Translations under genes and position numbers: made by a program
Shown here: positions 1-45,500 of the stretch, piece after piece
How the letters are laid out: each line of letters begins with the position of its first letter
Numbering within the stretch: the stretch's first letter is position 1
Origin: a virus
Direction: 5' to 3' (one strand)
Length of the DNA stretch: 64,000 nucleotides
IMG/VR virus record: IMGVR_UViG_3300025082_002887
Coordinates: 1 to 64,000 of that record
Notes under the pieces: generated by a model
Database searches by the model: none
The model's input: the letters and a program-made list of their open reading frames with translations, nothing else
What the model was told of the DNA's origin: nothing

Positions 1-20
1 GAGCGCGCTCACAGAAAGAA

Positions 21-1259
21 ATGGCAGCAGCTGCGGCGGAGTCTTCGCGGCGCGCCGAAGAAAAAGCGAGCAAAGCTGCAGAAGCGCGCATCAAGGCTCG
101 CGAACGTTTTTGTAAGAGAAAACCTCAAGTATGCGCTGATCAAGAAAAATTGGCGAATTTGCAAAAGATGCACACCCCAGAGAAACTTCCCGGAGTCATG
201 CTACCAGCAATGGCATATGGGATCCAGACGGACGAGGCACAGGATCAAGCTCTCATGATGCTGAGTATGGTCGAACCAACTGGTATCATGTCCTACGTCG
301 ACGTCCAAGATGCTTATATAAACATGGTAAATGACCGCACAGCCGCTAGCGCAGGATGGCTCATTGTTGCAATATTGTCCGCCATCCCAGGCCTGGGTAA
401 AACAATGGCCCCCATAAAAGCAGCGAAACTAGCTAGGATAAAAAAAGCAATTGCTAGGGCCGAAAAAATTGCAAGAAGATCAAAAAAAACCAAAGCCTTT
501 CCAAGTGTTCAAATTGAAAGAGCCATACCTGCGGCACGTGCGGAAATAGCAGAATTACAGGAATATACGGACATTTTCCAGCAACACATGGTTGATAATA
601 TACCAATCGATAAAGTAACGGCCCTAAGAATAATTGAAAAGTTTCCAAGCCTAAAAGTGACAAATAAAGCAGTATACAGGGGGATGAGAGTTGACGCTAA
701 TTTTATTAAGAAAAACTTTGGAGATGATGTTTTTCGCACGTGCTGTAGTGGGGATCCGGGTACGTATGTGTTAGAAGTTAACACTACACTCAAGCCAAGA
801 TCAAAGTCTGGTACCTCTTCGTGGAGTCTTGATCCCGGTGAGGGGGACCTCTGGGCGAAGGGGTACGTCAGGGACCCCAAAGACAAGCCGTATGAAATTC
901 TTTATATGGGCGGCGGGAAAAACAGCAAAGGTCTTAACATTACCAAAGCCGCGAAAGACATGGGACATCCCATGGCATCTCAAGATTTCGCAGAAGTCTC
1001 AATGATTGGCCCGGTTGGTGTTAAAAAAGTAGTAATAGTTAACAATGCCCCAAAGGGCGGCACGCGGCCGCGCTCTATTTATGCGGTGGAAAAGCAGGCT
1101 AAGCAGAAGCACAGAGTTCCGGGAGCGAAAGCAATCGACCTCCCAGCCGGCTTTTATCCTGCGGGCAGTAGAAAAGAGATATTAAAATTAATCGGAGTAC
1201 CTACCTCGCTAAAAGAAAGTATTGTAAAAAAACAACTAATTAGAGTGAGGATAGCATGA
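21..1259 (+). CDS. Putative effector: pre-toxin-like hydrophobic module plus C-terminal ADP-ribosyltransferase-like domain (probably 5'-truncated by the window)
   Basis: The frame is open upstream of ATG21 to the window edge. R-S-E-type ART motifs: AVYRGM, TSSWS, FAEV. The module EPTGIMSYVDVQDAY...AILSAIPGLGK is shared with the next ORF. Confidence 0.55.
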   Translation: MAAAAAESSRRAEEKASKAAEARIKARERFCKRKPQVCADQEKLANLQKMHTPEKLPGVMLPAMAYGIQTDEAQDQALMMLSMVEPTGIMSYVDVQDAYINMVNDRTAASAGWLIVAILSAIPGLGKTMAPIKAAKLARIKKAIARAEKIARRSKKTKAFPSVQIERAIPAARAEIAELQEYTDIFQQHMVDNIPIDKVTALRIIEKFPSLKVTNKAVYRGMRVDANFIKKNFGDDVFRTCCSGDPGTYVLEVNTTLKPRSKSGTSSWSLDPGEGDLWAKGYVRDPKDKPYEILYMGGGKNSKGLNITKAAKDMGHPMASQDFAEVSMIGPVGVKKVVIVNNAPKGGTRPRSIYAVEKQAKQKHRVPGAKAIDLPAGFYPAGSRKEILKLIGVPTSLKESIVKKQLIRVRIA

Positions 1260-2524
1260 AAATGAAACTCCTACTTGAAAATTGGCGAAAATTCTTGGAC
1301 GAAGAAAGAAAAGCACAAGAATTATTAAAAGAAGAGACCAGTTGTCCGCCCAACCAAATAGCCCTCCCAGACGGAACGTGTTTCCGTGACCCCTTGCACG
1401 TGGCGTCGCCTGACAGCATGCGGTCCGGGCCCGAAATTAAGGCCGTACGCGGCAGGGAGATGTCATCGAAGAAGGCGGCAGACAAGACAAAAGCAGCGCT
1501 AACTAGAGACAAAATGAAACGAGCGCACCATCGAATGTCTGGAGGGCCCTCCACGCCCGAAGCAAAAGAAGTCGCGCGAGTTGTAGCCAGTATGGGCGAT
1601 CCAACTGGTGTTTTGTCATACCCTGATGTAAAAGATGCCTACATGGACTATCAAAACAACCCATCAAAAGCTTCCATGGGCTGGCTCTTTGTTGCAATAG
1701 TAGCTGCGATTCCAATTGTTGGGTACACAGTGAAACCCCTTAAGGTTGCAAGATTAGCAAAGCTAACCAAAACGGTTAATAAGGCAGACGCCGCCTTTAC
1801 CGCCGCCGTCAAAGCCAAAAAACCGGGTGCGCTACAGGCGCAGAAGATGATGGCCGCACGCACCGGAAAGAGCGCCGAAGGAGCCCAAGTTGCGAGTAAA
1901 ACCGCCCGGATCAGCGGAGATCTCATGAAAGTTGAAAGAATCGAAGCAATGGTCATGGGCCACGGCCAATCATATGTAATCGTGAAAACAAAAGACGGGC
2001 CCATGGCGTTCTATAAATCTTCAGCGACTGCGTACTCGGATATGGGCAGCCCATGGATACCTATGTTTGGAGTGAATGGAGGCAATGATTTTATGAAACT
2101 AAGTGGCGCACATAAAGACGCTCTCGAATTCGTTGCGAAAGGTAAAAAGCTGAAAGGCAAATATGCCGTAGAAGGCTCTGAAATCAATAATATTGGGAAA
2201 GCGCTGGAGAAGCAAGGCGCGTTCAAGGGCGCGCCTCGGGGTTACAACAGCGTTTCACATTTTTTATCTGATAATATAAACTCCTTGCGGTCGGGAATGT
2301 CCATGGAACAAATAGTCGCACAATTAAACAGAGGTTTGAGAAAAATGGGCCGAGGGGAACTTAACCTACAAACCGTGGAGAATGTGGGGATAAATCTGCA
2401 TCTAAAACTCCATGGCGTCAACACAAAATTAACAGGTATGGCTGGATCTGGAATTCCGGGTGTCAATTCGGTGATTAATCAAAGCGACTTCATTGAAGCG
2501 CTAAATCTGGGAAGGGGAAGATGA
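1256..2524 (+). CDS. MKLLxENWRK-leader protein with pre-toxin-like module and unknown C-terminal domain
   Basis: GAGG SD and ATGA overlap. Leader MKMKLLLENWRKFLDE. DPTGVLSYPDVKDAY...AIVAAIPIVG is paralogous to ORF 21..1259, but the C-terminus (MAFYKSS...WIPMFG) is different. Confidence 0.6.
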   Translation: MKMKLLLENWRKFLDEERKAQELLKEETSCPPNQIALPDGTCFRDPLHVASPDSMRSGPEIKAVRGREMSSKKAADKTKAALTRDKMKRAHHRMSGGPSTPEAKEVARVVASMGDPTGVLSYPDVKDAYMDYQNNPSKASMGWLFVAIVAAIPIVGYTVKPLKVARLAKLTKTVNKADAAFTAAVKAKKPGALQAQKMMAARTGKSAEGAQVASKTARISGDLMKVERIEAMVMGHGQSYVIVKTKDGPMAFYKSSATAYSDMGSPWIPMFGVNGGNDFMKLSGAHKDALEFVAKGKKLKGKYAVEGSEINNIGKALEKQGAFKGAPRGYNSVSHFLSDNINSLRSGMSMEQIVAQLNRGLRKMGRGELNLQTVENVGINLHLKLHGVNTKLTGMAGSGIPGVNSVINQSDFIEALNLGRGR

Positions 2525-3951
2525 AACTTTTATTTGAAAATTGGCGGAAATATCTATTAATCGAGCGCTATTCAATTGAAGATGGAATGGAAGCGATTAA
2601 GCCCACCAACAAAAAAATGCGCAAGGTCTATAAAAGATACAACAATCAAACTTGGCATTGGGAAGTTGAGCGTGGCTGGATTGATCCTAAAGAAGAGCCA
2701 CCGCCTGCCGTACCAGAAGAAAAAATAAACAAGGCGGCATACGGATACAGAACGTATATATTTGAAGTAATACCGCAAGATATTGGGAGACGATACTCAG
2801 ATGGACGCACCGTGCCAGAAAATAAAAGAAAAGAAGTAGCCGATCAAAATCAAGGCCTTGCTGTCATGTGGATTCGTAAGCTTTCTATAAAGGATCCAAA
2901 GTTAGCTAGAGACATTATAGACGGTGAAATAACATATTCTGGCCGCGGACATGGCGACACCCCATATTCAGACATCATGCCCGACCTTGAAATTTACTTC
3001 CAAAACCTCGATTTAATGCCCAAAAGAAATTTAATAGAGCTTGAGTCATTTGATGAGTTACATCAAATGGTAGAAGAAGCAAAAGAAGAAATTTATGCTC
3101 GGCAAGAAAAGAAACAATATCTCGACGCAGAAGAAGGTACAAAAATTTTAAGCGGCAAAATGGTACCCAACGAAGAGACTGGAAAGTTAGAAAGGAGCCC
3201 GGGTAAAAATGGGTGGTTTATCGCAGAGATCCATAACAAGGGCGCCGCCTGTGAGCTAGGAAAAGGAACAGATTGGTGCACTGCAACAGACTTAGACTTT
3301 TTTGATGAATATTATGAACCTGATGATCCGCTGTTTTTCTTTGAAGGCTTCTGGACAGACCCCAGTACAAGATTTCAATTTCATTATGGGTCAGAATCAT
3401 TTATGGATGCGGGAGATAGGCCTGTAAATAAAGAAACATTCAAGACCCTTCACAGCTTGCTTATGCAAACAGAAGCACCAGAGAAATATCAAGTTGTACA
3501 AGACAAACAATATGAGATAATAGCCGGAGATTCAGACACGCCGGCAGAAGAGCTAAATAAAATAATTGAGCTATATTTGCAACGAAGGTCATCAGGATGG
3601 GGCTCAAATATAATCGAAAAAGTTGCAAAAAACGCTAAAACGCCATTAGAATCCCTTAAAAAACTATATCACTCAACTGACAATAAATATATTACTAGAA
3701 GTATTCAAGTTAACCCTGTTATTGATTTCGCGCTAGCAAAAGAGATTCTTATGTCAAACCCTAAAGACGAACTTATATATGCACGAGGGATAAAGCAAAT
3801 GACAGGTTATAAGCGTTGGGGTATATCGTTCGAAGAAGTTAATAAAATAATTAACGCCGTCGAAGCGGCCAGAAATTACGAGCCACGCCAAATCCCGCAA
3901 GAAGTTGCAAACCTATATGAACACAAACTCAAAATAAGGATAAAAAGATGA
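2521..3951 (+). CDS. MKLLFENWRK-leader protein with GTxWC (PcfJ-like) domain and short helical (LRV-like) repeats
   Basis: Leader MKLLFENWRKYLLIE. AACELGKGTDWCTA...RFQFH...FMDAGD. C-terminal TPAEELNKI / NAKTPLESLKKL repeats. Confidence 0.55.
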   Translation: MKLLFENWRKYLLIERYSIEDGMEAIKPTNKKMRKVYKRYNNQTWHWEVERGWIDPKEEPPPAVPEEKINKAAYGYRTYIFEVIPQDIGRRYSDGRTVPENKRKEVADQNQGLAVMWIRKLSIKDPKLARDIIDGEITYSGRGHGDTPYSDIMPDLEIYFQNLDLMPKRNLIELESFDELHQMVEEAKEEIYARQEKKQYLDAEEGTKILSGKMVPNEETGKLERSPGKNGWFIAEIHNKGAACELGKGTDWCTATDLDFFDEYYEPDDPLFFFEGFWTDPSTRFQFHYGSESFMDAGDRPVNKETFKTLHSLLMQTEAPEKYQVVQDKQYEIIAGDSDTPAEELNKIIELYLQRRSSGWGSNIIEKVAKNAKTPLESLKKLYHSTDNKYITRSIQVNPVIDFALAKEILMSNPKDELIYARGIKQMTGYKRWGISFEEVNKIINAVEAARNYEPRQIPQEVANLYEHKLKIRIKR

Positions 3952-5645
3952 AACTACTATTTGAAAATTGGCGAAAATTTATAAAAGAAGATATAACTGA
4001 TTTAGCTTCTCGCCGGCGCGGTAGTGAAAAAGAATTCGTACGCGTTTTTAATGAAGACCAACTTGGCCAACTTAATAATTCAATTGCTAAAATCGTAGAA
4101 ACAGCAAAACAAAAGCTTGGTGCTGAAGGTGATATTCCATATTTTGATCCAAACTCTTTAGAAAAAGTTGAATTAGCAGAGCCACTAAAAATGGTTGCAG
4201 AACAAACTGATGAAGAACTTGGCATCACACCTTTTCAATCCTCTCAGGCTTCTCCTGAGCGAATGGCCTTGAGAAAACAATACCATGGACCAGAAGGCGA
4301 ATTAGCCAAACATGGTCCGAGAGCAGTTAAAAATCTAGAAAAAGGCATTGGTCAAATGTCGCCAGAAGAATTCGAAGAAGCGGGATATGTTATTAAAGTT
4401 CCTCAAAGCGTTCTAGATGATTTTGCTCAATTAGTTGAAAGCACAAAAGAAACAGATGGACTATATGAAGAGGCAAAAGATTGGTATCACAATATTCGTG
4501 GACTCCTCGACAAAGAAACAGAAGACGACAGAGATTCCGCTTTGTTGGGATTATTAATTGCAACTTACTCTCCACGAGCTAAATTTGCTTTAAACTTGGC
4601 CGAAGCTGTTTTTATGTACAAGGCGGTTCAAAAGGATGCCTCTGAAAACCCAGAAGCGCTTAAAAATTATCTTGAAACATTCCCTGGTGCAGAAAAAAGA
4701 GAGCCCGGAGAATTTCGAGGATTTACTGGGGCTCACAAAGTTCCAAATTTTGCTCTCAATCTCGTAGCTCCTGATTTGGCTGGAAAAAGAGAGGAATTGG
4801 GAGACGTCGTTTATAACGATCTTTATGAATGGAATTCAACAATTGACACATGGATGATTGATGCGTTTTATCCTTCTCTCCGCAAAGCTTCTACAGCAAA
4901 AGAATGGGAAGCAATTAAAGGCAAACTAATGTCAAATGTTGTTTCTTATCGACATATGGCTGGATTAGTTGCCAAAGAAGCAAAAAAATTAAATTTAATT
5001 CCTCACCAATTGCAAGCACTTATTTGGGTAGCCTCACAAATACGACAAACTGGCGAAGCTGGTCTTGGCGTAACAACACAATTCGCTTTTGATCAGATTA
5101 GAGAGTCAATTAGAAATATTGCCGAGATCAACAATGACCTAGAGGCACTTAAAAATTTAGAAGAAGAAGATTGGCTAGGAACAATTATCGACACCATTGA
5201 TAGAAGCGGATTTGAAGAGGCTTCAAAATATACTCTGGGGATGAAAGATGAAAAAGGCAAAATAACAACTCCAGGAATCCGAAGCATCACCGCAAGTGGC
5301 AAAAAAGGCTCAGCGTTTGAATATTTTCCTGCACCAGAAAAAGTAGAAAAACCAAAAGGACCAGCAAAGCCAAAAGGGCCGCCAAAAGAAAAAGTAATGA
5401 AGCCGCATCAAGATCCTCAATACGAAGGCTTAAATACACACTATGTGATGAACAATGTTATTCAAATGCCAACTGGTAAATTTAATAATTTATACGATTC
5501 AGTTACCCTATATTTAGATCCTGAATTTTCTACCGACAAAGCAGTTGAACATATTTTAGGAAGGTTCGACCCAGAAGCAAAAGCTAGCAAAGATTACTTT
5601 ACTGAAAATTTAAAACACTTTAAAGTTACAATAGGAAAAAAATAA
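3948..5645 (+). CDS. MKLLFENWRK-leader protein with HhH-GPD DNA-glycosylase-like domain
   Basis: Leader MKLLFENWRKFIKE. Motifs DWYH, ATYSPR, HKVPNF, TIDTWM and QLQALIW follow the pattern of phage HhH-glycosylase-like proteins. Confidence 0.5.
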   Translation: MKLLFENWRKFIKEDITDLASRRRGSEKEFVRVFNEDQLGQLNNSIAKIVETAKQKLGAEGDIPYFDPNSLEKVELAEPLKMVAEQTDEELGITPFQSSQASPERMALRKQYHGPEGELAKHGPRAVKNLEKGIGQMSPEEFEEAGYVIKVPQSVLDDFAQLVESTKETDGLYEEAKDWYHNIRGLLDKETEDDRDSALLGLLIATYSPRAKFALNLAEAVFMYKAVQKDASENPEALKNYLETFPGAEKREPGEFRGFTGAHKVPNFALNLVAPDLAGKREELGDVVYNDLYEWNSTIDTWMIDAFYPSLRKASTAKEWEAIKGKLMSNVVSYRHMAGLVAKEAKKLNLIPHQLQALIWVASQIRQTGEAGLGVTTQFAFDQIRESIRNIAEINNDLEALKNLEEEDWLGTIIDTIDRSGFEEASKYTLGMKDEKGKITTPGIRSITASGKKGSAFEYFPAPEKVEKPKGPAKPKGPPKEKVMKPHQDPQYEGLNTHYVMNNVIQMPTGKFNNLYDSVTLYLDPEFSTDKAVEHILGRFDPEAKASKDYFTENLKHFKVTIGKK

Positions 5646-5659: not shown

Positions 5660-7588
5660 ATGCCTTGTACTATTAACAATAATACTTCCAATGACCTTTC
5701 TCAATTGGAAGATCTAACTCAAAAATTAGTTCCTTTTGCACAAAAGCAGATAGGCTTTAATCGACCACCCACAATTAATTTTGATGATGATGAGAAAAAT
5801 GCAGCCAATCCTCTCGGAAGGACTGCTCAATACGATCCTTCAAATATGGAAATTATTGTCTTTGTTACAGGGCGCCACACAAAAGATATTCTGCGCTCAA
5901 TTGCACACGAGCTAGTTCACCATGGCCAAAATCTAAGAGGAGAATTTAGCAAGCCCATATCCACTAAATTAGGCTATGCACAAAACGACGAGCATTTACG
6001 AGGAATGGAGCGCGAAGCGTACGAAACTGGTAATCTTTGTTTTCGAGATTGGGAAGACGGAATAAAACAGCAATTACCACTATATGAAACTATTTATAAA
6101 GAATCTCTTATAGGAGGAGACAATATGTCGATTAAAGACTGGAAAGATAAAGAGCTTAATAATCTTTTAATGGATAAATGGGGATATAAGCCACAACCTG
6201 AAAAGAAGATTGAGGAAGGAATTCCAACAACCGTAGTCAATGATTACGAAACTGGAGAAATTCATTTTGGCGAAGACGAGGATGATGAGGACGGCGATGA
6301 TGAGGACGAAGAGTCTAGTAGTCAATTACATTTAAACCCTCAAGACCCAGAATTTCGAGAAAAAGCCTCTTTATCAGAAAGTGTACAAAAATCATCTATG
6401 ATACATGAAGATCTCCCACCCAGCCTGAGAGGCCGCGGCGCCGGAGATGACGAAGCAACGAAACTTCGCGATAGCATTGCTGATATTAAGAGCGGTGGAG
6501 GAGACCAAGCAACGAAACTTCGCGATAGCATTGCTGATATTAAGAGCGGTGGAGGAGACCAAGCAACGAAACTTCGCGATAGCATTGCTGATATTAAGAG
6601 CGGGAACCAGGGTTCCCGGTCCGGGTCAGGGTGCCAATCATCAAGGTGTATGAAAGAAAGACTCGGACAGCTGCCCTCCGATCGGCCAGCCGCTGAACCT
6701 GAAGATGTTGCAGAAGAAAGAGACGTTGTGGATACAATAAAAGACATTGGCGGAGTTGCCCTTGACATTCTCGGCCTCGGCGGTCTTTTTGGCGAAGATG
6801 ATACGGCCGCCGAAGTCAAAGAAAAAGTATCAAAATTTGACCCAGAAACGGCACAAAGATTGAAAGATAAAATAGCTTCTATCAAAGTGGGACAGTCCTT
6901 GCCGGGGAAAGTCGGCAGACTACCCGACGCAGAATGGACAGAAGTCTCGGGACCCGGAGCAGATCCCGGAACGGGCACTGGTGCTGTTTCTTCCGGCGGG
7001 GCTGCACTTCATGTTGATTCTGGTGCCGGCTATTTAAATTTATGGAAAAAATTAACAGGCGTTGAACAAGGGGCTTTCCAAAATAATTGGAGAACTTTCC
7101 GTCAATATATGAGAATGGTTGTTGGCGCCGGTCAACAGGCTCGCCCAATGTTGAGAACTAGCGTAGATTACAGACCAATGCTAAGCCAAGCAATCAGTAT
7201 GAGTCAACGAGGAGCCCATGTGCCTTCTAAATTCAAAGGAGCATGGAAAAAGAAAAAGACTCCCAAACGAGTAGATATACGCGCACAGCCAGGACCTAAA
7301 TCTTATATTAGCCCATCCCCGTGGGATGCCACGCCCGAAAAAGAAATGGGAGAATTTAAAGGGATGGACTATGAAAATGCTGCAAGTGCCTACGAACAAG
7401 CTTTAGAACGAGCCAATCTCGCGGCTAAAACAGGAACAACAGTCCAAGGCCAAACTGCTGAATGGTGGCGAGAATTCGCCTCAAAAATTGCACAAGGCAC
7501 AGACCTTGAAGAAGAACAGCCTATTTCACAATTTGGAGAAGTGCCCGGCACCAAATCACAATGGCAAGCATGGCTAGGCCAGCCATAA
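5660..7588 (+). CDS. Zincin metallopeptidase domain fused to a long low-complexity/repeat region
   Basis: RSIAHELVHHGQ (HExxH) with a downstream EREAY glutamate, an acidic tract and a threefold 18-aa repeat. Probable internal start at 6125. Confidence 0.65.
   Translation: MPCTINNNTSNDLSQLEDLTQKLVPFAQKQIGFNRPPTINFDDDEKNAANPLGRTAQYDPSNMEIIVFVTGRHTKDILRSIAHELVHHGQNLRGEFSKPISTKLGYAQNDEHLRGMEREAYETGNLCFRDWEDGIKQQLPLYETIYKESLIGGDNMSIKDWKDKELNNLLMDKWGYKPQPEKKIEEGIPTTVVNDYETGEIHFGEDEDDEDGDDEDEESSSQLHLNPQDPEFREKASLSESVQKSSMIHEDLPPSLRGRGAGDDEATKLRDSIADIKSGGGDQATKLRDSIADIKSGGGDQATKLRDSIADIKSGNQGSRSGSGCQSSRCMKERLGQLPSDRPAAEPEDVAEERDVVDTIKDIGGVALDILGLGGLFGEDDTAAEVKEKVSKFDPETAQRLKDKIASIKVGQSLPGKVGRLPDAEWTEVSGPGADPGTGTGAVSSGGAALHVDSGAGYLNLWKKLTGVEQGAFQNNWRTFRQYMRMVVGAGQQARPMLRTSVDYRPMLSQAISMSQRGAHVPSKFKGAWKKKKTPKRVDIRAQPGPKSYISPSPWDATPEKEMGEFKGMDYENAASAYEQALERANLAAKTGTTVQGQTAEWWREFASKIAQGTDLEEEQPISQFGEVPGTKSQWQAWLGQP
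6453..6603 (+). repeat. In-frame 54-nt tandem repeat, ~2.8 identical copies (ATKLRDSIADIKSGGGDQ)
   Basis: The unit aagcaacgaaacttcgcgatagcattgctgatattaagagcggtggaggagacc starts at 6453, 6507 and 6561 (last copy partial). Confidence 0.95.
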
Positions 7589-7602
7589 CAAAGAAGGACT
7601 TT

Positions 7603-9411
7603 ATGATGAAAATCTTATTCAAAAAGTCTTCTGCGCTTCTTAAGGAAGCTGTCGCTTCTGCAAAAATTGCATCTCCCGAAAATATTAGTTATGGATATGT
7701 ATACGGAACAATAGACGGCACAGTTTTAAGCAGCCACAATGCTACAAATGTATATTATGGCGCATCTATGAATAAGTTTATGTTAGCTTTTATTAACTTA
7801 GCGCTATATTGGAGCGGCCGCGGCCAGCGCGCCGGCGGGTATGCCACTCTAACAAAAGATGAGCTGAAACAATATATTCATTATTCAAAAGGAAGTAAAG
7901 GTTCTAGTGAAATGAATCGCGCGCTATCGGGCCAAAGACGTAGGACCGATGGCAGACATGTTTCACGAAAAAGGGCTGCTGCTCTAGCCACCACAAAACA
8001 AGAAATCGATATCACTTTAAGAGACATGGGTATAAGTAGAAAACTATTGCCAGGAATACGGTACAGTGGCGCCACGAACAAACAAACTCCCATGGGCGTT
8101 TTTAAATTTTTGTCTTATTTAATAAAGTCTGGTGCTGATCCTGAAACTGATTACCACGAAGAGGCTAAGAAAATTCTAAATCTTATGAAAACCCCTTTTA
8201 CGGGCCATGATTCAAGATGGTTTCGAGAAAAATTAGCGCCTTGGTTGAGCGAAAATGGCGTACAAATTAATAATATTTATGGAAAAGGAGGCTGGAATCC
8301 GAAGGCCCCCGCGGGCATGGCTTTGGGCGTCGTCCTTAATGACGATAAAATTTTAGTTTTATATAGTAACGACTCCCGAGTAGAAAATAAAGCATGGGGG
8401 CGAAAACAAATCCACAATATTATATTAAATATTCTATCTGGAAAACCGCCAAAGGTTGACGCCATGGGCGCGCCCGCACAAAAGCCTGCGCCCGCGCCGG
8501 CGACAACTCAAGAACAACCACAGCTAAGTAGCGCGGGGCTTGTACAAATCCAAGGAAATGTTAGAGATCCAAATAAAGCATGGGGGACACAAACCACAGC
8601 AAATTGTATACAACAACTTGGATCATGGCCAATAGGTGATATTTCATTACCGGAAGGGGGAAAAATGCGGGGTCATGTGTCACATCGAAAGGGCGCTGAT
8701 TTTGACGCGGCACTCCCAACAAAAGGAGGCTATTCAATTGTTGGCGGCGCGGGAGGCGTTTGGGGAACCGACGCCAGAGGCAATATTTTTAGAGACATCA
8801 GCCCAGAAGAACTCGATGTGGCCAGCGCGCTCAATTTTTTGACTACAGTTCGTAATTGCGGTGCTGGAGTTTTTATAGATATAGGGCATATCAATAAAAT
8901 CAAAGAATATGCGAGACAAGTTCTATCTCCTGCGGATTTTTCTAAGGTATTTAGAAGAGTAGGTCTTGCTCGGCAAGGAGACACCCACCATCGCAGCCAT
9001 TTTCATGTAAGAGTAGGCGGCGGCGGAAAAATAGGAAGAGTGGCCATAAGAAAAAGACCACCTTCGGCTGCGGGAATGAAACCAACACAACAACCCTCAA
9101 CAGGAGGCAGATATTTACCCGGCTACGAATATTATCGCACACCCGACTTTGATTTCGAAACCTTCTATTCAGAACTAGATAAATATTTCCCAAATATATG
9201 CGGTCCAAAAGGTTGTGGAGCAAATGGTATACTATTTACTAGAGGACGAGATTTTAAATTTGGCCCTGAACATGCTGATGCACTCCGCATGTTAAAACAA
9301 GTACAAACTGGTAAACGCTTGACACAAGCAGAAATTGATAAATTACAAAGCGACGCCAGGGGAAGGAAATCAACGGGTACTAAATCACGAGTTTGGGTAG
9401 AGCCCTTGTGA
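7603..9411 (+). CDS. Peptidoglycan peptidase fusion: serine beta-lactamase/DD-peptidase fold plus MepA-like endopeptidase
   Basis: AAGGA SD favours start 7603 (track start 7561). SxxK (ASMNK) and KTG-like (YGKGGW) motifs. MepA-like IGDISLPEGG..GHVSHRKGADFD...HHRSHFHVR. Confidence 0.7.
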   Translation: MMKILFKKSSALLKEAVASAKIASPENISYGYVYGTIDGTVLSSHNATNVYYGASMNKFMLAFINLALYWSGRGQRAGGYATLTKDELKQYIHYSKGSKGSSEMNRALSGQRRRTDGRHVSRKRAAALATTKQEIDITLRDMGISRKLLPGIRYSGATNKQTPMGVFKFLSYLIKSGADPETDYHEEAKKILNLMKTPFTGHDSRWFREKLAPWLSENGVQINNIYGKGGWNPKAPAGMALGVVLNDDKILVLYSNDSRVENKAWGRKQIHNIILNILSGKPPKVDAMGAPAQKPAPAPATTQEQPQLSSAGLVQIQGNVRDPNKAWGTQTTANCIQQLGSWPIGDISLPEGGKMRGHVSHRKGADFDAALPTKGGYSIVGGAGGVWGTDARGNIFRDISPEELDVASALNFLTTVRNCGAGVFIDIGHINKIKEYARQVLSPADFSKVFRRVGLARQGDTHHRSHFHVRVGGGGKIGRVAIRKRPPSAAGMKPTQQPSTGGRYLPGYEYYRTPDFDFETFYSELDKYFPNICGPKGCGANGILFTRGRDFKFGPEHADALRMLKQVQTGKRLTQAEIDKLQSDARGRKSTGTKSRVWVEPL

Positions 9412-10323: not shown

Positions 10324-13300
10324 ATGGGCACCGCAGGACACATGCAACATCCTTTTAACGTTCCACGCGTTAAAACGGGCCAAGACTTAATTAATTATTT
10401 TGAAAGAATCGTTGGCCACCTTTCTGAAAAAAACCCTGAAACTGGAGAAGCTACTAATATAGGTAGTGTTAAATTTGATGGTATCAATGTAAGCTTTAAG
10501 CTTGTAAACGATGAGACTACTCCTACCGGAAAAGACTTTAGAATGGATCGAGGAACTTCATACACCAAATCTGTTCTTGGTATGACAACAAAAGATGCGT
10601 ATGAGTTCTGGCCAGATGAATTACAAGATGATGGCACATACAAAAAACATGGCATGCCCCACGCGATCGAAGAACTTTTAAAAATATTCAACGAAGCCCT
10701 CCCGCAAATAAAACCAGAATTAGAAATTTTAGGAATGTGGGACGACCCCACTAAATATTTTAATACTGAATATATGAAAAAGGGCAAAACGAATGTTATT
10801 GAATATGCCGAAAAAATATTAGCTATACATAGTGTTAATCAGTTTTATGAAAAGAAAGCTCGCAAGTCATGGGTAGAATCGGGAAAATCTATGGACCGCC
10901 CGGGCACTCCAAGGCCAACCGATCCGGACACAGGAGAGCTAACAAAAGACGACAGCTTTGAAATCAATTATGATAAAGGCGCCCTGGCCCGAATTATAGA
11001 AAAAGTTAAGCCAATTGCAGAAAAATATAATATTAGTTTAGTTGGTGATGTACCGACAGAATTAATAACTGATATTGATTTTACCGAAACTTTGACTAGT
11101 CCATTTTCTATAAGAACAACAGAAAGTGAAACACAGACACGCACTCTTGAAGATTGGCTTTTAGATGCAATTAATCCATGGGACGCAAAAGTAACTAAAA
11201 AAGTAGTTCAACCAAATCCAGAGACTGGGGAAGAAGAAATAACTGGTAGAGAAATTCCAGCAATTGGTAAAGAAGTTTACGTAGCTATCGAAGTAGATAA
11301 GATACCATTAGATCAATATTTGTTACATCCCGAAAAAGACGTTATAATAGCCATTAACGGCGCCCTTTTCAACCACGCGACGCTCACCTTGGGAATGGAC
11401 GTTAAACGCGCTCTAGGTAGCTCTAAAGGCTCTCTAGAAGGGCATGAAGGAGTTGTACTCAGAGGACTAGAGGATCGGCCCTTAAAAGTGACAGGAGATT
11501 TCATTTTAAAGGGGAGAAGTGGAGAAATAAAGAAAAAAATAAGTGGCGATAAAAAAACGATCAAAGAAGAAATAAATTTAGAAAACGACGATACAGAAAA
11601 AACAAGAATTGCAATATATCCGGGACGATTTCAGCCAATGGGGCAACATCATGCCGAAGTATTTAAAGAACTTGAACTGGATGAGAGCTTTGATAAAGTT
11701 TATATAGCTACTACTGATAAAGTAGATTTCACTGAAATTGAGGGGGTGCCTAAATCTCCTTTTAATTTTGAAGAAAAGAAACAAATAATGATGATGCACG
11801 AGATTCCGGAAGAAAAGATTATTGAAGTTGTAAATCCTTATAACGCCGTTGAAATCTTACGCGATTATGACCCCGAAACAACATCTATTACATATTTTGT
11901 GGGCGCAAAAGATATGAGAGAAAATCCTCGATTTCAAAGAACGGAAGGTGTTACTGAGGGTGGTTATGAATGGAAAATCAAAGTTAAGGATCATGTTTCA
12001 ATTGATATTCCGGACATCGGAGAAATGTCTGGTACAAATATTAAAAAAGCGTTAAAAGACTCTGAACCAGAAACTTTCGAAACTATAATGGGGTGGTATG
12101 ACCCGATATTATATGATCTCATTAAAAATAGATTAAAACATTTGGAGGAATCCCAGCAGCCGCTGGGAATCTTTCTGCGGTTAATCGAAGAAGCGACAAA
12201 TAAAAAAGAAAACTTGTTGTTAGAGCAACAGACCAGCAGACAATTAATTGAGCCATCTCAAGTAGAACAATGGTATAGAAATAAAGGCCTTTTAGACGAG
12301 ACTCGGGCCAAGTCAATAACCGCATATAATAATTATTATAAAGAATATCTTTCTGAACACACAGGGAAAATTGATCTGGAAAGCTTACTAAGGATTTCCA
12401 ATGATTTAGCAACAAAAGTTAGAGATGCAATAGTTGCAAGTTATCAATCTCCAAAAAATACTTCTATAGATGAATTAATTTTGATTCAGCAAAAAAGGGC
12501 GCGCCTTGATACAAATAAGAAACGATTTCTAAATCTTCGTATAAATATGGTAAAGAAAAGACAAAACAATCAAACATTGTCCTCTCAACAACTTTTAGAA
12601 ATAGAACAACAATATAATAATTATTATCTTAGGATTATTGTGGGCGCCCTTTCCAGGCCAGTACATGTTATAATAGGATATGATTTATCTCTTTCTGCTA
12701 ATGTTGCATTGAGTATATATTCTTTTGAGCGACGCGGCGAGTACCATCCGGATTCAAAAATAGTATATTTAACTCCAATGAGAATAATAAAAACGGGCCT
12801 TTTAGATCAACGCCAAAGTACTCTCCCATCCGCCATCAGGCACGAATTAGATCATGCAGTTGAATATGCACTCCGAGACCTACCGAAAGAAAAGGGAGCA
12901 ATTGACATTGTAGAGATACAATCTTCATTGCTTGAACTGTGTTTATTATCAAAAGAAGAGATTTCTAAAAAAGGAAAAGAATATGCCGACTGGTATGACA
13001 AGCTTACGAGTCTAGATGAAGTAAGAGCCCGAATAAGAGAAATACAAGGTTTAACTGCCGCTATAAGTCGCGATCAAGCACAATCATTATGTCAAAAAAA
13101 ACAAGCAGATAGCTTTATTAATATATGGGATTTTTTAGATTGCAATTGTCGCCACCTTGCAGATGTTATTAATCAAGTTGCTGTATTAGAGCCTCCTCAA
13201 AAATCTATAAGTATGGTTTCTGAAAATATAATGAATATGATTGAAGAGGCAATTAATGAAGCAACCATCGAACGCATGTATGGCCGCGCCGCTCCCGGGA

Positions 13301-13644
13301 ATATGGTGAGCATAATTCAGCCCGGATCTGGTAAGAGAGATGAAAAAAGCGTTAAAGATGTTGCCGAAGCAATGATAGACGCAATTATTTCAGCGATGGA
13401 TGAAAAAGAACTTGATGAGAATTCAACAGCAGGCGGCGCCGGCGTGGGCCAAGCTGGAAATGTTGAAGGGGCCGCAGGCGCTTTTACTTTTGAAGTACCA
13501 GCTGAAACTACGCTATACACAACCGCGCCAGGGAAAAGAGATAAGAAGAAAAAAAAGAAAAAGAAGAAAAAGAAGAAAGAAAAACAAACGTTAATTCGTG
13601 AAGTTGAAGACTATTTATTTAGCATACTGGGAGTTGATCCATGA
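10324..13644 (+). CDS. Multidomain protein: ligase-like nucleotidyltransferase, cytidylyltransferase-like domain and HExxH peptidase
   Basis: VKFDGIN (KxDG) and HEGVVLRG..LKVTG; IAIYPGRFQPMGQHH..MSGTNIKKAL; IRHELDH; poly-Lys near the C-terminus. Confidence 0.65.
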   Translation: MGTAGHMQHPFNVPRVKTGQDLINYFERIVGHLSEKNPETGEATNIGSVKFDGINVSFKLVNDETTPTGKDFRMDRGTSYTKSVLGMTTKDAYEFWPDELQDDGTYKKHGMPHAIEELLKIFNEALPQIKPELEILGMWDDPTKYFNTEYMKKGKTNVIEYAEKILAIHSVNQFYEKKARKSWVESGKSMDRPGTPRPTDPDTGELTKDDSFEINYDKGALARIIEKVKPIAEKYNISLVGDVPTELITDIDFTETLTSPFSIRTTESETQTRTLEDWLLDAINPWDAKVTKKVVQPNPETGEEEITGREIPAIGKEVYVAIEVDKIPLDQYLLHPEKDVIIAINGALFNHATLTLGMDVKRALGSSKGSLEGHEGVVLRGLEDRPLKVTGDFILKGRSGEIKKKISGDKKTIKEEINLENDDTEKTRIAIYPGRFQPMGQHHAEVFKELELDESFDKVYIATTDKVDFTEIEGVPKSPFNFEEKKQIMMMHEIPEEKIIEVVNPYNAVEILRDYDPETTSITYFVGAKDMRENPRFQRTEGVTEGGYEWKIKVKDHVSIDIPDIGEMSGTNIKKALKDSEPETFETIMGWYDPILYDLIKNRLKHLEESQQPLGIFLRLIEEATNKKENLLLEQQTSRQLIEPSQVEQWYRNKGLLDETRAKSITAYNNYYKEYLSEHTGKIDLESLLRISNDLATKVRDAIVASYQSPKNTSIDELILIQQKRARLDTNKKRFLNLRINMVKKRQNNQTLSSQQLLEIEQQYNNYYLRIIVGALSRPVHVIIGYDLSLSANVALSIYSFERRGEYHPDSKIVYLTPMRIIKTGLLDQRQSTLPSAIRHELDHAVEYALRDLPKEKGAIDIVEIQSSLLELCLLSKEEISKKGKEYADWYDKLTSLDEVRARIREIQGLTAAISRDQAQSLCQKKQADSFINIWDFLDCNCRHLADVINQVAVLEPPQKSISMVSENIMNMIEEAINEATIERMYGRAAPGNMVSIIQPGSGKRDEKSVKDVAEAMIDAIISAMDEKELDENSTAGGAGVGQAGNVEGAAGAFTFEVPAETTLYTTAPGKRDKKKKKKKKKKKKEKQTLIREVEDYLFSILGVDP

Positions 13645-14435
13645 ATCAAGAAGAAAAAAGATTAAGATCATTAATTAGAAAAGGCATCGGTGTTGTAATG
13701 GAGCGCAAAAAAACACAAGAACATGAAGGCCAAAGACTGCGCAATATTATTAGTTATTTAGTCAAAGAAGTCAAAGGAACTGCCAAAGTTGCTAATAGAG
13801 TAATCCACAAAAATAGTGGGATCAACGCATTAGACGACCTTTTAAGAGATATTATTACACAAATTGAAGGCACTTATAAAACTCTTGCCACGGACGAGCT
13901 ACAGCGCAAATCATTTAGATATCATATGTTAATTAATTTTAAAAATATTCTTGCTCCTGTTAATGCAAATCGGTTTGCACCAGAAACAGGGCCAGCTTTG
14001 ACTGAACAAGAAGAAAAGGAACCAGAAATTAAAGTATCAATAGATGATGAACTAGAAGACGATGATATAAATGCCCCCCCAGACCCTGATAAATTTATTC
14101 CTTTAAGACCACAAGACGAAGAAAAAGCTAAGGAAGAAAAAGAAAAAGAAGAAGGTTTTGTTAAGCTTGATTCTTCTGATCCGGATGTACAACAGGGTGC
14201 GGCGTTTGCTGAAAAAGCTTTTAACAAAGTTTCGAAACAAATTATATCTACATATGAAGACTTAATTTCTTCGAAAGACGCGGCCGCATTCGAAGACTGG
14301 GGTCTTACTAACTTAAAACTTTATTTTGATATGTTTGAAGATGAAATGGCAGACGAAATTGGTAAAGAACCAGAAAGCCCTGATTACCCACCAAAAGAAG
14401 CACCAGTAGCACTAGAAGAAGTGTATGAAATATGA
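13641..14435 (+). CDS. Acidic hypothetical phage protein
   Basis: GGAG SD and ATGA overlap. Duplicated helical N-terminus (RLRSLIRK / RLRNIISYLVKE). Confidence 0.7.
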   Translation: MNQEEKRLRSLIRKGIGVVMERKKTQEHEGQRLRNIISYLVKEVKGTAKVANRVIHKNSGINALDDLLRDIITQIEGTYKTLATDELQRKSFRYHMLINFKNILAPVNANRFAPETGPALTEQEEKEPEIKVSIDDELEDDDINAPPDPDKFIPLRPQDEEKAKEEKEKEEGFVKLDSSDPDVQQGAAFAEKAFNKVSKQIISTYEDLISSKDAAAFEDWGLTNLKLYFDMFEDEMADEIGKEPESPDYPPKEAPVALEEVYEI

Positions 14436-14728
14436 AACTAACTAAATCAAAATTAAAGAAAATTATTAAGGAGGAGCTGAAAAACATTCTTTTGAATGAA
14501 GATGATGAAAAACGAACTCAATATCTTTGTATTGAATGGTTTGACGATGATCTGGATGACAAAGAAAAAGCTAGAATTAAAAGAGCATTTCGGTCTTCAA
14601 ATCCAGGAAAACCTCATGGAAGCGGCGATCTTTGGAATAACTATCTTAGCAAATGGGCCGGCTGTCCCCATAAACCGCCAAACCATAAAGTAACTGTAAA
14701 CACAGTTAAAACACCTCTTAAAGAATAA
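14432..14728 (+). CDS. Small protein with MKLTKSKLKKIIKEEL leader
   Basis: ATGA overlap. Amphipathic leader ending ILLNE. Confidence 0.65.
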   Translation: MKLTKSKLKKIIKEELKNILLNEDDEKRTQYLCIEWFDDDLDDKEKARIKRAFRSSNPGKPHGSGDLWNNYLSKWAGCPHKPPNHKVTVNTVKTPLKE

Positions 14729-42512: not shown

Positions 42513-45500
42513 ATGGCAGAATGTGATTATCAAGGCGATGAGGGGTGCGAAGCGCCAGCTATATTTAAGTTGCCGGCCGGGACGCTTAATCCTCAAATTA
42601 ATGAGGTCGACCTCAATCAAAGAAGTATAAATTTTCAAGAAGAAGGTGTTTATTCTGTCCTAGGCCAAACAGTAGATGAAGCTTTTACCCCAAATAAATT
42701 TAAAGGTCTCGGCCCTTTAAATGCTATATTATTGCGGATAGAAAATCCATATGGCGAAGGCGCTTCATGCACAGCCGAAGAGGTTGCTGCGAATGCCACC
42801 CATACTGGTGAAAAAGATCCATTAACAAAATATCGCGTACGCATACCGGAGATGTGTGTTGCTACTTTGCCGCCACCGAACAACTTAGAAGATCCTTGTG
42901 ATCAAGACAACCTTCGCATCGATGCCCACATACTTTGCGAAGCAAAAGACAGAGAAGTGATGAGCATACCAGTTAAACTTGGCCAAGTAGTCAGAGTTCA
43001 GTTCGCTTCTGGCGCCGGATTAACTAATCTTAAATACTTGGGCCCCGTCGATTCGAAGGGCACAGCGTGGGAAAAACTTGATGGACCACACAGCCCCCCC
43101 GCCGATTATGGGAAACGCTTAGAAGAATGTAAAAAAATATATCCCAACAGAGGGGCAACTGGTGACATAATTGGTATGGATACAAATTTGTGGAAAAAAA
43201 ATAGTGGGCGTACACCGCTTGTTTCGGGCATTGGTATACCCGATGGTCCTGTCATCCCCGGAGAAATACACAAAGAATGGGTTGTAAACCTGTTTAAAGA
43301 ACTAAAAAAAGAAGGTAAGTATAAAGGATTAATTTGGACTGGGGTATGCAAAAATAACGGACCAGAAGATAATCTAAATATGTTAACAAGCGCCGGAAAA
43401 AAATCTTCTATAGGCGATCCCGGGCGCTCAACTGTTATTTATATGCCAATTGGCACCGACCCCACAATCCCTCTAGAAATAATATATTGGTTCCATGATG
43501 AAGCCGGCTTTAAAAACGATAAAGAAGAATGGGATGTGCTTTGGCAATCATTGTCGGGGATGATTAAAAAAAAGAGATCTTTAAATAATGCGAGGCGCAA
43601 TTTTATTTTAGTTATACCAGAGATGTTATGGTCTAAACAAAACACTACAGTAGCCGGTATGCGAAGAAATGAAACCACGCCAGTTTCAATAAAGTTTGGC
43701 CAATTAGATGTCGCCTCTTCATCGGGCTTCGTTGGTGAAACTCGCCTGCGCCATGCGGGATACACAGACCGTCAATGGGCCGCCTGGGGCTTCTCCGCAG
43801 GCTCGCATGATACCATCAACGCCTCGTCATTCGATCGGCCGTATCCGCCGCTAGCTTTCGTGTCATTAGAAGCCGGAGAAGCAAACCCTGCTTTGGCTGC
43901 TCCCACTGCCGGCAATATGAAACTTCTTCATGAGGAAGTATTGGGCCTATTACAAAAATATTTCAACGTCACCAAGGACAACGCCACACAAATAACATTG
44001 GTAGCCGATCACAAAGGAGGCATTGCTATATCTAATTTAGCACGTCTTAACCAATTAGAAGAGTTAAATCCATCAAAAATAGTTTTAATACACGCAGATT
44101 ATAGCAGCATCGGGCAATTACCAACCCAAGGGCTAGCGTTCGCGAAGAACTCCCAGATTCCAGACGGTATAGTTTTTAATTATTTTCATGACAATGATGC
44201 ATTTGAGATTTTAAAACACATTAATGCAAACACTCGATTAGAAATACATGTATCGCGCACCTCCGGGAAAAATCCCCTGCCGCGCCAAGCGGCCCGGGCC
44301 TTTATAGGGGCACTTTCCACAATGCTGCCCACTCCACCCGGGTGGTGGGCGCCCGACCCGCTCCCGGTCCACACCTTCGACGACCGCGTGCAAAAATTAA
44401 AAGAGCTTTATCATTACGCTGGTTTGGACCATTGGAGAGGAAAAACCACTGACGGGAATTATAATCCAAACCCCGCCCTGTTTAATGCTTATAAAGCTGG
44501 CTATTCCTTAATAAATCGCACCGGGCCCGCCGCCAATATAATTCGATTGGAGCCTCCCTTTAATAATATTGTATATAAAAGCTGGGGCGCATCTGCAAAG
44601 GGAGCTTTGGCGTGGCTCCCAGCAGATAACAACGTATCGCAACCTGAAGCACTGGTACAAGAATCCAAAAAACTTGCAGGCACTTTTGATATCGAGTCCG
44701 ATGTACCCAACAGCGTAAAAGAGGCCTTTAGAAAGTTTAGCGGAAGAGCGATATTATACAGATCAGAACTGGTCGGCACTACAAAAAATGTTGCAATACT
44801 AGAACCCAGCGGTGCTAGCATTTATAATAATTACGAACTTATCTATTATTTACATGGGGATATAGGCCAGAATGGCGCCGCAAAAACATATACAGACGCA
44901 TTAGGGAATCAATTTGCAACAATGGTTGGCGACGACCGAAATGTAATTATTGTGTTAATGGATCTTGATAATCCATCATCTAACACGGGCCTTTGGCAAA
45001 ATGGCGGCTTTAATCGGTTTCATGAGGAAATTTTATCCAAAATTAAAGAAAAGTGGTCTGGCCAAAAAAAGGGAGTTAATGATGATGGAAGTATATCATA
45101 TGACACTCCAGTCCACCCCCAACCCGGATTCTTTACAATCAAAGCCAATCACGGCGGATCTCGGATTCTTAACAGTATTGTTAAAAGCTTGGATAGTTCT
45201 CTTAGAGCGCCATCACCAGGCGCCCTCCGGAGGATAGATTTATTTGATGCAAATTACGGCCCAGAAATAGGAATAATCAAACAACTAAAAAGTTGGGGTG
45301 CTTCGACGCTAGGTACTAATTTTGAAATTCAAATGGTAGTAACGCCCACTACGATTGGGAAGCCCGGCCAGCAAGGCCAGCCGGCCAACAAACAAGCTGA
45401 AAAATATCAATCAGAACCAGGAGTATGGATTATTCCGGCTTCGGTTGATCACGGTGTGCTGCCCTATGTGTATTTTTCTGCCCCAAGTAAATTAGACACT

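Follow-up and report, generated by a model that had tools for sequence, protein, structure and literature searches.

A DPTG module shared by two candidate ejected cargo proteins with exchangeable C-terminal domains on a contig of a putative marine T4-like myovirus

We analysed two adjacent genes, P0001 and P0002, at the beginning of a 64,000-base stretch of viral DNA (the window), which comprises bases 1 to 64,000 of a linear 84.7-kb IMG/VR contig estimated to be ~48% complete. Their products are probably virion-packaged, ejected cargo proteins with a recombining delivery region, encoded by a large marine T4-like myovirus; we put the probability of this reading at roughly 60%. Both proteins consist of an N-terminal leader, a spacer, a module of ~70 residues with an invariant (D/E)PTG turn, an Ala/Lys-rich linker and a C-terminal domain, called tip A in P0001 and tip B in P0002. 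The two genes are:

3..1259, plus strand: gene P0001, truncated at its 5' end by the contig end; full form with leader, spacer, module, linker and tip A
1256..2524, plus strand: gene P0002, probable start at 1262; leader, spacer, module, linker and tip B

The DPTG module and the proteins that carry it

BLASTP aligned residues 64-178 of P0001 with residues 94-208 of P0002 over 115 residues without a gap (39% identity, 66% positives, E 4e-22). Nothing in the remainder of the two proteins aligned, and their C-terminal ~230 residues are therefore considered unrelated. An initial annotation of the window had already described two open reading frames (ORFs) with a common module followed by unrelated C-termini, and both ORFs and the peptides quoted for them are indeed present. 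Its account of the shared part was incomplete in that the N-terminal leader, which is shared as well, was not listed. A hidden Markov model (HMM) of the module detected exactly two copies in the whole 84.7-kb contig. They are given here with the mean Kyte-Doolittle (KD) hydropathy of their best 19-residue window (KD19; KD17 is the same measure for 17 residues):

231..458, plus strand: module copy 1, P0001 residues 71-146, found by BLASTP; module HMM E 1.3e-35; KD19 1.73
1556..1783, plus strand: module copy 2, P0002 residues 101-176; module HMM E 8.7e-37; KD19 2.05; first sequence of profile A4

The shared stretch is composed, in this order, of a helix, the invariant (D/E)PTG turn, a second helix, a weakly hydrophobic helix rich in Gly and Ala that ends in AxPxxGK, and a basic helix rich in Lys and Ala. 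In copy 1 the turn reads EPTG, the hydrophobic helix ends in AIPGLGK and the start of the basic helix follows. The consensus is DPTG(I)SSYPDV..A...f..nPS..N.G.l.La.lGALPviGK...p.K..K, with D, P, T and G conserved at 91-96%, a later P at 100% and a later G at 96%. The hydrophobic hairpin proposed initially turned out to be a single helix, since a second hydrophobic segment was found in only 9 of 159 module proteins. The helix has a median KD17 of 1.52 and separates regions of different net charge, −0.9 before it and +4.0 after it; the charge after the helix exceeds the one before in 95% of the module proteins. AlphaFold2 (AF2) and VIA showed no more than a small three-helix arrangement.

The module profile A4 has 76 columns and was made from five copies, the two of the window and those of loci L004, L005 and L006. 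In a search of 1.84 billion representative proteins it retrieved the module in 380 clusters at E<=1e-3, 73 of them at E<=1e-10. None of the names of the cluster members was informative. Module proteins range from 91 to 2214 residues, and the module starts anywhere between the N-terminus and beyond residue 1100. No Pfam or PHROG family covers it, no family occurred in more than 7 of 103 module proteins, and a literature search for DPTG or for the leader motif returned nothing relevant. We regard the DPTG module as a distinct and widespread domain that was previously undescribed.

When the tips were clustered after a conservative cut 60 residues past the module, 111 C-terminal regions fell into 43 unrelated clusters, and the 43 proteins among them that bear the ENWR leader described below into 14. 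The swapped C-termini noticed initially for one pair are thus borne out on a much larger scale: over the 380 clusters the module is joined to at least 43 tip families, with sharp junctions, and is not fused to one and the same C-terminus. Among the 103 module proteins, Pfam recognised a muramidase, a tail lysozyme, a glucosaminidase, a YkuD, a LysM and an ART-PolyVal domain, each in a single protein. PHROG matches comprised an L-Ala-D-Glu peptidase in 6 proteins, endolysins of several families in no fewer than 7, a tail protein in 2, a transglycosylase and a tape-measure family. The portal-binding domain crAss_CARG1 (PF25725) was present in 7 of the 103, in each case as a domain of its own at a distance of 100-170 residues from the module. 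Of three proteins that were mapped, the hydrophobic helix of the module precedes CARG1 by ~100-170 residues in P0031 and P0044, and the order is reversed in P0041.

A further observation concerned a 1106-residue ORF of the window (10324-13644), which opens with MGTAGHMQHPF... and has no module. A 948-residue metagenomic homologue of its N-terminus, P0151, contains a module at residues 489-546, and another homologue of the gene lies in L004 at 13602-14330.

Exchange of N-regions and tips

Close relatives of the two proteins are scarce. A collection of 5.8 billion proteins held 10 homologues of P0002 and 3 of P0001, and these (P0007-P0014 among them) keep the order leader, module, linker and same tip. 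P0001 and P0002 matched no family in Pfam (E<=0.1) or PHROGs, tblastn of P0002, P0016 and P0029 against 50,697 GenBank phage records gave no match, and a related-locus search of IMG/VR with P0002 and the profiles A1 and A2 returned no relatives.

Comparison of these sequences indicated that the N-regions do not follow the tips. Proteins with different tips may have similar N-regions: an ORF of L006 with tip A and P0011-13 with tip B are 68-70% identical over ~135 residues, P0083 (tip A) and P0009 (tip B) 76% over 130 residues, and P0017 (tip A) and P0007 (tip B) 76% over 45 residues. Orthologues with the same tip have N-regions of 25-44% and tips of 48-66% identity. At the syntenic loci L004 and L006, which have the same upstream genes, the tips are 93% identical and the N-regions 41%, and P0018, P0019 and P0020 combine one common N-region with three different tips. 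In the window pair the N-regions have diverged to 39%. In pairwise alignments, identity is high up to the point where the Ala/Lys-rich linker ends, ~160 residues into the proteins, and is then abruptly lost. The sharpness of the junctions, together with N-regions that do not track the tips, indicates that delivery region and payload are exchanged as cassettes, and this in both directions; judged from these alignments, the Ala/Lys-rich helical linker is the recombination junction.

Upstream of the tip A gene, L004 (137-1834) and L006 (3-1700) encode a Cys-rich protein of ~565 residues with repeated CDGxxD-type units and a C-terminal half resembling a von Willebrand factor A domain. The Cys-rich protein is followed by a small lipoprotein-like one with a HELVH motif.

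The initial annotation had interpreted the pair as polymorphic toxins, with the shared part as a PT-TG-like pre-toxin module. True toxins of the bacterial type, with a PT-TG-type domain before the tip and immunity encoded elsewhere, would indeed be expected to combine a conserved N-region with variable tips at sharp junctions. The TG-containing motif ahead of the tips and an ADP-ribosyltransferase (ART)-like tip, a common toxin type, would be in line with this. Membership of the PT-TG family did not hold up, however, since PF14449 matched neither the contig (E<=10) nor the 103 module proteins (E<=1e-3). Bacterial secretion or trafficking domains of Pfam (LXG, RHS, TPS, PAAR and the like) were not found in P0001 and P0002, nor is there an immunity ORF. 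The genes belong to a phage genome and lie in a coupled array in which each member bears a phage-type leader. L004 and L006, moreover, combine one constant tip with differing N-regions, the opposite of how polymorphic toxins vary, and the commonest identifiable payloads on module proteins are cell-wall hydrolases and virion-associated domains (crAss cargo protein 1, lysins, tail protein). All this makes the toxin frame highly improbable.

Both tips are conserved domains with characteristic motifs:

573..1256, plus strand: tip A, candidate R-S-E ADP-ribosyltransferase-like domain; invariant columns in profiles A2 and A3, motif positions
1928..2521, plus strand: tip B, conserved domain; 52 invariant columns in profile A1, AF2 predicted local distance difference test score (pLDDT) of 60-89 in this part

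Tip A contains VYRG at residues 218-221, TSSWS at 265-269 and AEV at 324 with the glutamate E325, at spacings of 47 and 59 residues, and has a conserved GFYPAGSR in its tail. All orthologues keep [VI][YF]RG, TSSWS and (Q/F/W)AE[VI]xM[IM]G, and R220, S266-S269 and E325 are invariant in profile A3; tip A hence exhibits the R / S-x-S / E order with ART-like spacing. A sister tip family, found on the same kind of N-region, carries [FY]RG, S[WFY][ST] and a full ExE[VI]L. Aligned by hhalign with these ExE-type sister tips, tip A scored a probability of 92% (E 6e-7), serine and glutamate motifs being superimposed. Look-alikes of the sister tip P0026 in the ESM Atlas, by features and structure, were mostly ART families (Tse2, Scabin/pertussis S1, NarE, Lart1, PF01129), at cosines of 0.87-0.90 and template modelling scores of 0.44-0.52, values that serve as a lead only. 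The tip A orthologue of L004 ends in a NUDIX domain (E 7e-13), a fold that commonly handles ADP-ribose. From the R/S-x-S/E triad and the NUDIX fusion in one relative, tip A may be read as an ADP-ribosyltransferase-like enzyme, an assignment for which we consider the chances even. The AF2 model of P0001 (pLDDT 38) was unusable for the fold of tip A, and profile searches of the PDB with A1, A3 and A6 yielded nothing meaningful. The same L004 orthologue (2957-4876, 639 residues) exhibits a second, partial DPTG motif at residue 42.

Tip B, with the core motifs YVIVKT.DGP..FYKSS...W.P.FG and KGKYAVEGSEI, had no family, PDB or fold match, and no longer fused forms of it were found. Its HMM, however, matched residues 1704-1744 of gp038 (1957 residues) of Cellulophaga phage phi4:1 with an E of 4e-4 and 16.7 bits, the best of 2000 shuffles reaching 7.0 bits. 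The motif common to both is ..IPFYKSS.GT....W.PFFG. An hhalign comparison of tip B with gp038 gave 91%, and Foldseek on BFVD independently returned gp038 (probability 0.75, 97 columns, 24% identity). In GenBank, gp038 is annotated as structural, 'based on experimental MS/MS proteomics analysis', MS/MS being tandem mass spectrometry. The protein is encoded within a row of giant virion proteins adjoining a tail protein, and the tip B motif is near its C-terminus. This short match suggests that the tip B core occurs in a particle-borne protein. The row in phi4:1 (NC_021788 20597-41970, L025) comprises the giant virion proteins gp035-gp040, verified by mass spectrometry (MS) and devoid of Pfam domains.

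Leader, gene array and proposed route of delivery

P0001 and P0002 are the first of four consecutive genes, P0001-P0004, that open with a leader of the form MKLL(F/L)ENWR...(L/I)xE and have near-identical leader DNA:

1262..1303, plus strand: leader of P0002, MKLLLENWRKFLDE, ending in (L/I)xE; leader DNA and protein common to the four genes
2521..3951, plus strand: P0003, next array gene; same leader, no module, unrelated body
3948..5645, plus strand: P0004, next array gene; same leader, no module, weak DUF7178 / phrog_3842 match

The ORF at 21..1259 from which the initial annotation started is real but truncated by the contig end. The full gene encodes 461 residues starting MKLLLENWREFLKE, as seen in a 97%-identical contig (L003, 130-1515) and in protein P0016. 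P0002 has in-frame ATGs at 1256 and 1262, of which the second (MKLLLENW...) is most likely the start, because the homologue P0007 and the neighbouring leaders open with MKLL.... With this start, 2 nucleotides separate P0002 from the P0001 stop codon (TGA, 1257-1259), so the ATGA overlap reported initially for this pair is probably a short gap; genuine ATGA overlaps occur at 2521 and 3948. Either way no room is left for an ORF between the two genes, and the absence of a small immunity ORF was confirmed: no ORF lies between array genes, and no small same-strand ORF was found at the junctions 1256-1262, 2521 and 3948.

The (L/I)xE motif is the cleavage motif of the T4 head protease. An [LI]xE ends at residues 14-18 in 47 of 50 ENWR leaders, compared with 6% in random windows of the same proteins. 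P0002 and P0016 have no further [LI]xE before residue 200; a depletion of [LI]xE in the protein bodies was not observed. The ENWR leader starts 48 of the 159 recovered module proteins, about one third. The module begins at residues 39-130 in leader proteins and as deep as residue 1166 elsewhere. A few module proteins start with a second leader, MKLTQQKLQQIIKEE-like (P0022, P0120, P0128, P0135), in place of ENWR, so that either tag can apparently replace the other before the module; the others have different N-termini. Leaders of this second type, here MKLTKSKLKQIIKEE-like, were also noticed on three ORFs of the contig, at 14432-14728 and, beyond the window, at 82093-82578 and 82496-83002.

Many leader proteins end in short tails of alternating basic and hydrophobic residues, such as IRVRIA, KIRIKR and KVTIGKK in the array (window 1230-1256, 3922-3948 and 5613-5642) and WRKIIL, ILISIKR and KIFVRR in relatives. 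The strict pattern is rare and this is an impression only; the tails may constitute a C-terminal tag.

Nearly all genes of the window are on the plus strand. The contig encodes a gp25-type baseplate wedge protein, a gp6-like wedge protein, PhoH, very large tail and fibre proteins and a long glycan-synthesis block. From this gene content (gp25, gp6-like baseplate, PhoH) we conclude that the source virus is a large marine myovirus and a distant relative of T4. The closest cultured relatives of its gp6-like wedge protein belong to Microcystis phage Mel-JY01 and Flavobacterium phage immuto (~31% identity). No clear link to the array was seen for the T4 late-promoter motif TATAAATA, which has 16 matches in the window but none inside the 5 kb that the two genes and their leader-bearing neighbours occupy. 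The product of the gene that follows the array, P0005 (5660-7588), has a zincin-like HELVHH motif close to its N-terminus and contains a 19-residue repeat three times in tandem (GGGDQATKLRDSIADIKS); L004 encodes a homologue at 12285-13598. Two large proteins, encoded at 7561-9411 and 42513-46529, show weak, sub-threshold matches to Peptidase_M74, a LAS-type murein endopeptidase family, and are possible virion-associated wall hydrolases.

For P0001 and P0002 we propose the following route. The leader of ~14-18 residues would most likely act in the manner of the capsid targeting sequence (CTS) of T4, loading the protein into the prohead and being cut by the head protease at (L/I)xE, and the module would stay on the mature protein after leader removal. 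On ejection, the latent hydrophobic helix would most likely engage or insert into the host envelope, flanked on one side by the basic residues. A similar envelope step has been proposed for the N-terminal hydrophobic helix of gp45 of a crassvirus and for the ejection proteins of T7 and P22. The module would bring lysins and similar payloads into the wall compartment, or help others across, and the Ala/Lys-rich linker would be the swap junction ahead of the exchangeable C-terminal payload. Tip A would be a putative ADP-ribosyltransferase-like enzyme acting on host molecules; tip B is a conserved domain that also occurs in a virion protein verified by proteomics. An immunity gene would be unneeded because the target is a host about to be taken over. 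The frequent lysin payloads and the link to CARG1 fit an envelope-engaging module. The initial idea of host-directed effectors that stay inactive until processing or ejection agrees with this proposal.

Several points weigh against it. Genes for a gp21-type head protease (PF03420, no match), a capsid or a portal are absent from the contig, which makes up only ~48% of the genome. The hydrophobic helix is a borderline membrane span, a KD of 1.6 being reached in 45% of the modules, and the AF2 models are poor, with pLDDT of 38 for P0001 and 52 for P0002. The ART profiles PF03496, PF01129, PF18760, PF15962 and PF21641 had no match on the contig (E<=10), whereas in a control run of this tool PF03496 recovered T4 Alt at 4e-38, and an hhalign comparison of tips A and B with the single sequence of T4 Alt was negative. 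The sequence match of tip B to gp038 extends over only ~40 residues. The searched gp45 homologues (PhiCrAssBcn23, DAC15 and cr85_1) had no copy of the module, nor had Flavobacterium phage immuto, Microcystis phage Mel-JY01 or Cellulophaga phage phi4:1. Lysin-type payloads, finally, would equally fit a membrane-anchored protein that is not packaged.

The borderline hydrophobicity bears on a further possibility, namely that the proteins are packaged and that the module is a docking element inside the virion, at the portal, tail channel or inner body, which sets the order of ejection. The helix would then be buried in a bundle or oligomer. That the invariant residues are turn formers (DPTG, P..GK), that the predicted models show a small three-helix arrangement and that the module co-occurs with CARG1 would be in line with such a role. 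In crAss001 gp45, helical segments are bound to the tail barrel and a domain to the portal (PMC10172136). The charge asymmetry of ~+4 after the helix in 95% of the proteins is, however, typical of membrane-flanking regions, and the module is often joined to peptidoglycan hydrolases, enzymes that have to work in the envelope. The module also occurs in both myovirus-like and crAss-like proteins, which differ in portals and tails. Taken together, intravirion docking appears unlikely.

The lysin payloads and the single hydrophobic helix with its basic flank could also be explained by proteins that are never packaged. The module would then be a membrane anchor during infection, serving tethered lysins, superinfection exclusion or envelope remodelling, and the leader a translational or regulatory element. 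Many module proteins indeed match endolysin or L-Ala-D-Glu peptidase PHROGs. With positive charge after the helix, however, a protein inserted from the cytoplasm would retain its catalytic C-terminus on the cytoplasmic side, where a lysin is of no use; signal-arrest-release (SAR) or signal-anchor endolysins have the opposite orientation. The position of the module at residues 39-130, or deep in proteins of up to 2214 residues, is hardly that of an anchor, and its co-occurrence with the portal-binding CARG1 and with tail-protein and tape-measure families argues in the same direction. So do the tip B motif in a virion protein verified by MS and the (L/I)xE carried by the leader. A membrane anchor is in our view quite improbable.

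Should the reading of P0001 and P0002 as packaged and ejected cargo hold, it could tentatively be extended. It is possible, if rather doubtful at present, that the DPTG module serves marine T4-like and crass-like phages as a portable domain for envelope translocation or ejection and marks cargo for membrane or periplasm, that leader, module and linker form one recombining cassette, and that the whole constitutes an immunity-free, host-aimed 'polymorphic effector' system, an analogue of the polymorphic toxins of bacteria. To our knowledge, almost nothing is known about the delivery of proteins from the capsid into or across the host envelope outside T4, T7, P22, N4 and one crassvirus. The module is an easily recognised element of ~70 residues, situated between a putative head-loading tag and many payloads in hundreds of proteins of uncultured phages. 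If it engages the envelope, it would offer a sequence handle to predict ejected proteins in metagenomes, a defined junction for cargo fusions and a testable link between T4-like and crass-like delivery. Tip A, as a putative ADP-ribosyltransferase that is sometimes fused to NUDIX, would widen the NAD-based host-takeover repertoire of marine phages.

Comparison with known systems

In SAR and signal-anchor endolysins the hydrophobic helix stands right at the N-terminus and is preceded by positive charge, and the catalytic domain is exported. The module differs in starting at residues 39-130 (up to 1166) and in its net charge of −0.9 before and +4.0 after the helix. Bacterial polymorphic toxins of the PT-TG type (PF14449) follow the same logic of a trafficking region, a pre-tip module and a variable tip with recombination at a fixed junction. 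The genes studied here are phage-encoded, have no HMM match, secretion-system domain or immunity gene, and their relatives swap N-regions as often as tips.

Proteins stored in the capsid offer further parallels. The ejection proteins gp14, gp15 and gp16 of T7 and gp7, gp20 and gp16 of P22 have hydrophobic segments, exit before the DNA does and function in the envelope; the transglycosylase of T7 gp16 (PMC10172136) parallels the lysin payloads on the module. No similarity of sequence or fold to these podovirus proteins was detected, and the virus studied here is myovirus-like, with the baseplate of a contractile tail. Mass spectrometry detected cargo protein 1 of PhiCrAss001, gp45, in virions. 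Its CARG1 domain sits on the portal within the capsid, and for its predicted N-terminal transmembrane helix an insertion into the membrane of the host upon ejection was proposed (PMC10172136). The likeness to gp45 (PF25725) lies in the hydrophobic element that stands before CARG1 in P0031 and P0044, the reverse of the order in P0041. P0001 and P0002 themselves have no CARG1 domain, and the gp45 homologues of reference and cultured crassviruses have no DPTG module.

For polyvalent proteins, which bear ART, NUDIX, peptidase and lysin-type domains, packaging and joint injection with the DNA have been predicted (Iyer et al. 2017, PMC5512222). They resemble the present family in the ART-PolyVal domain of one module protein and in the fusion of tip A to NUDIX in the L004 orthologue. 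They differ in carrying 2-15 payloads, P0001 and P0002 having one each. The article on them describes neither the leader nor the DPTG module, and a term search of it gave no mention of a transmembrane or pre-toxin element (PMC5512222).

Further counterparts are the internal proteins IPI, IPII and IPIII and Alt of T4. There, too, unrelated proteins have a short N-terminal tag in common that ends in (L/I)xE, the payloads are directed at the host and no immunity genes exist. The T4 internal proteins are a diverse set having only a CTS in common (PMC3012670), and Alt is a packaged and injected ADP-ribosyltransferase (PMC5512222). The T4 CTS, MKTYQEFIAE, is unrelated in sequence to the ENWR leader, tip A has no match to the Alt family (PF03496), and packaging and cleavage are predictions here. 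T4 has no second conserved module of ~70 residues with a linker between tag and payload, as is present here. Packaged and tagged phage cargo is thus already known from T4. What is new is the DPTG module common to T4-like and crass-like cargo proteins and the two-way exchange of cassettes at a fixed junction, together with two payload families and the link of tip B to a virion protein verified by proteomics.

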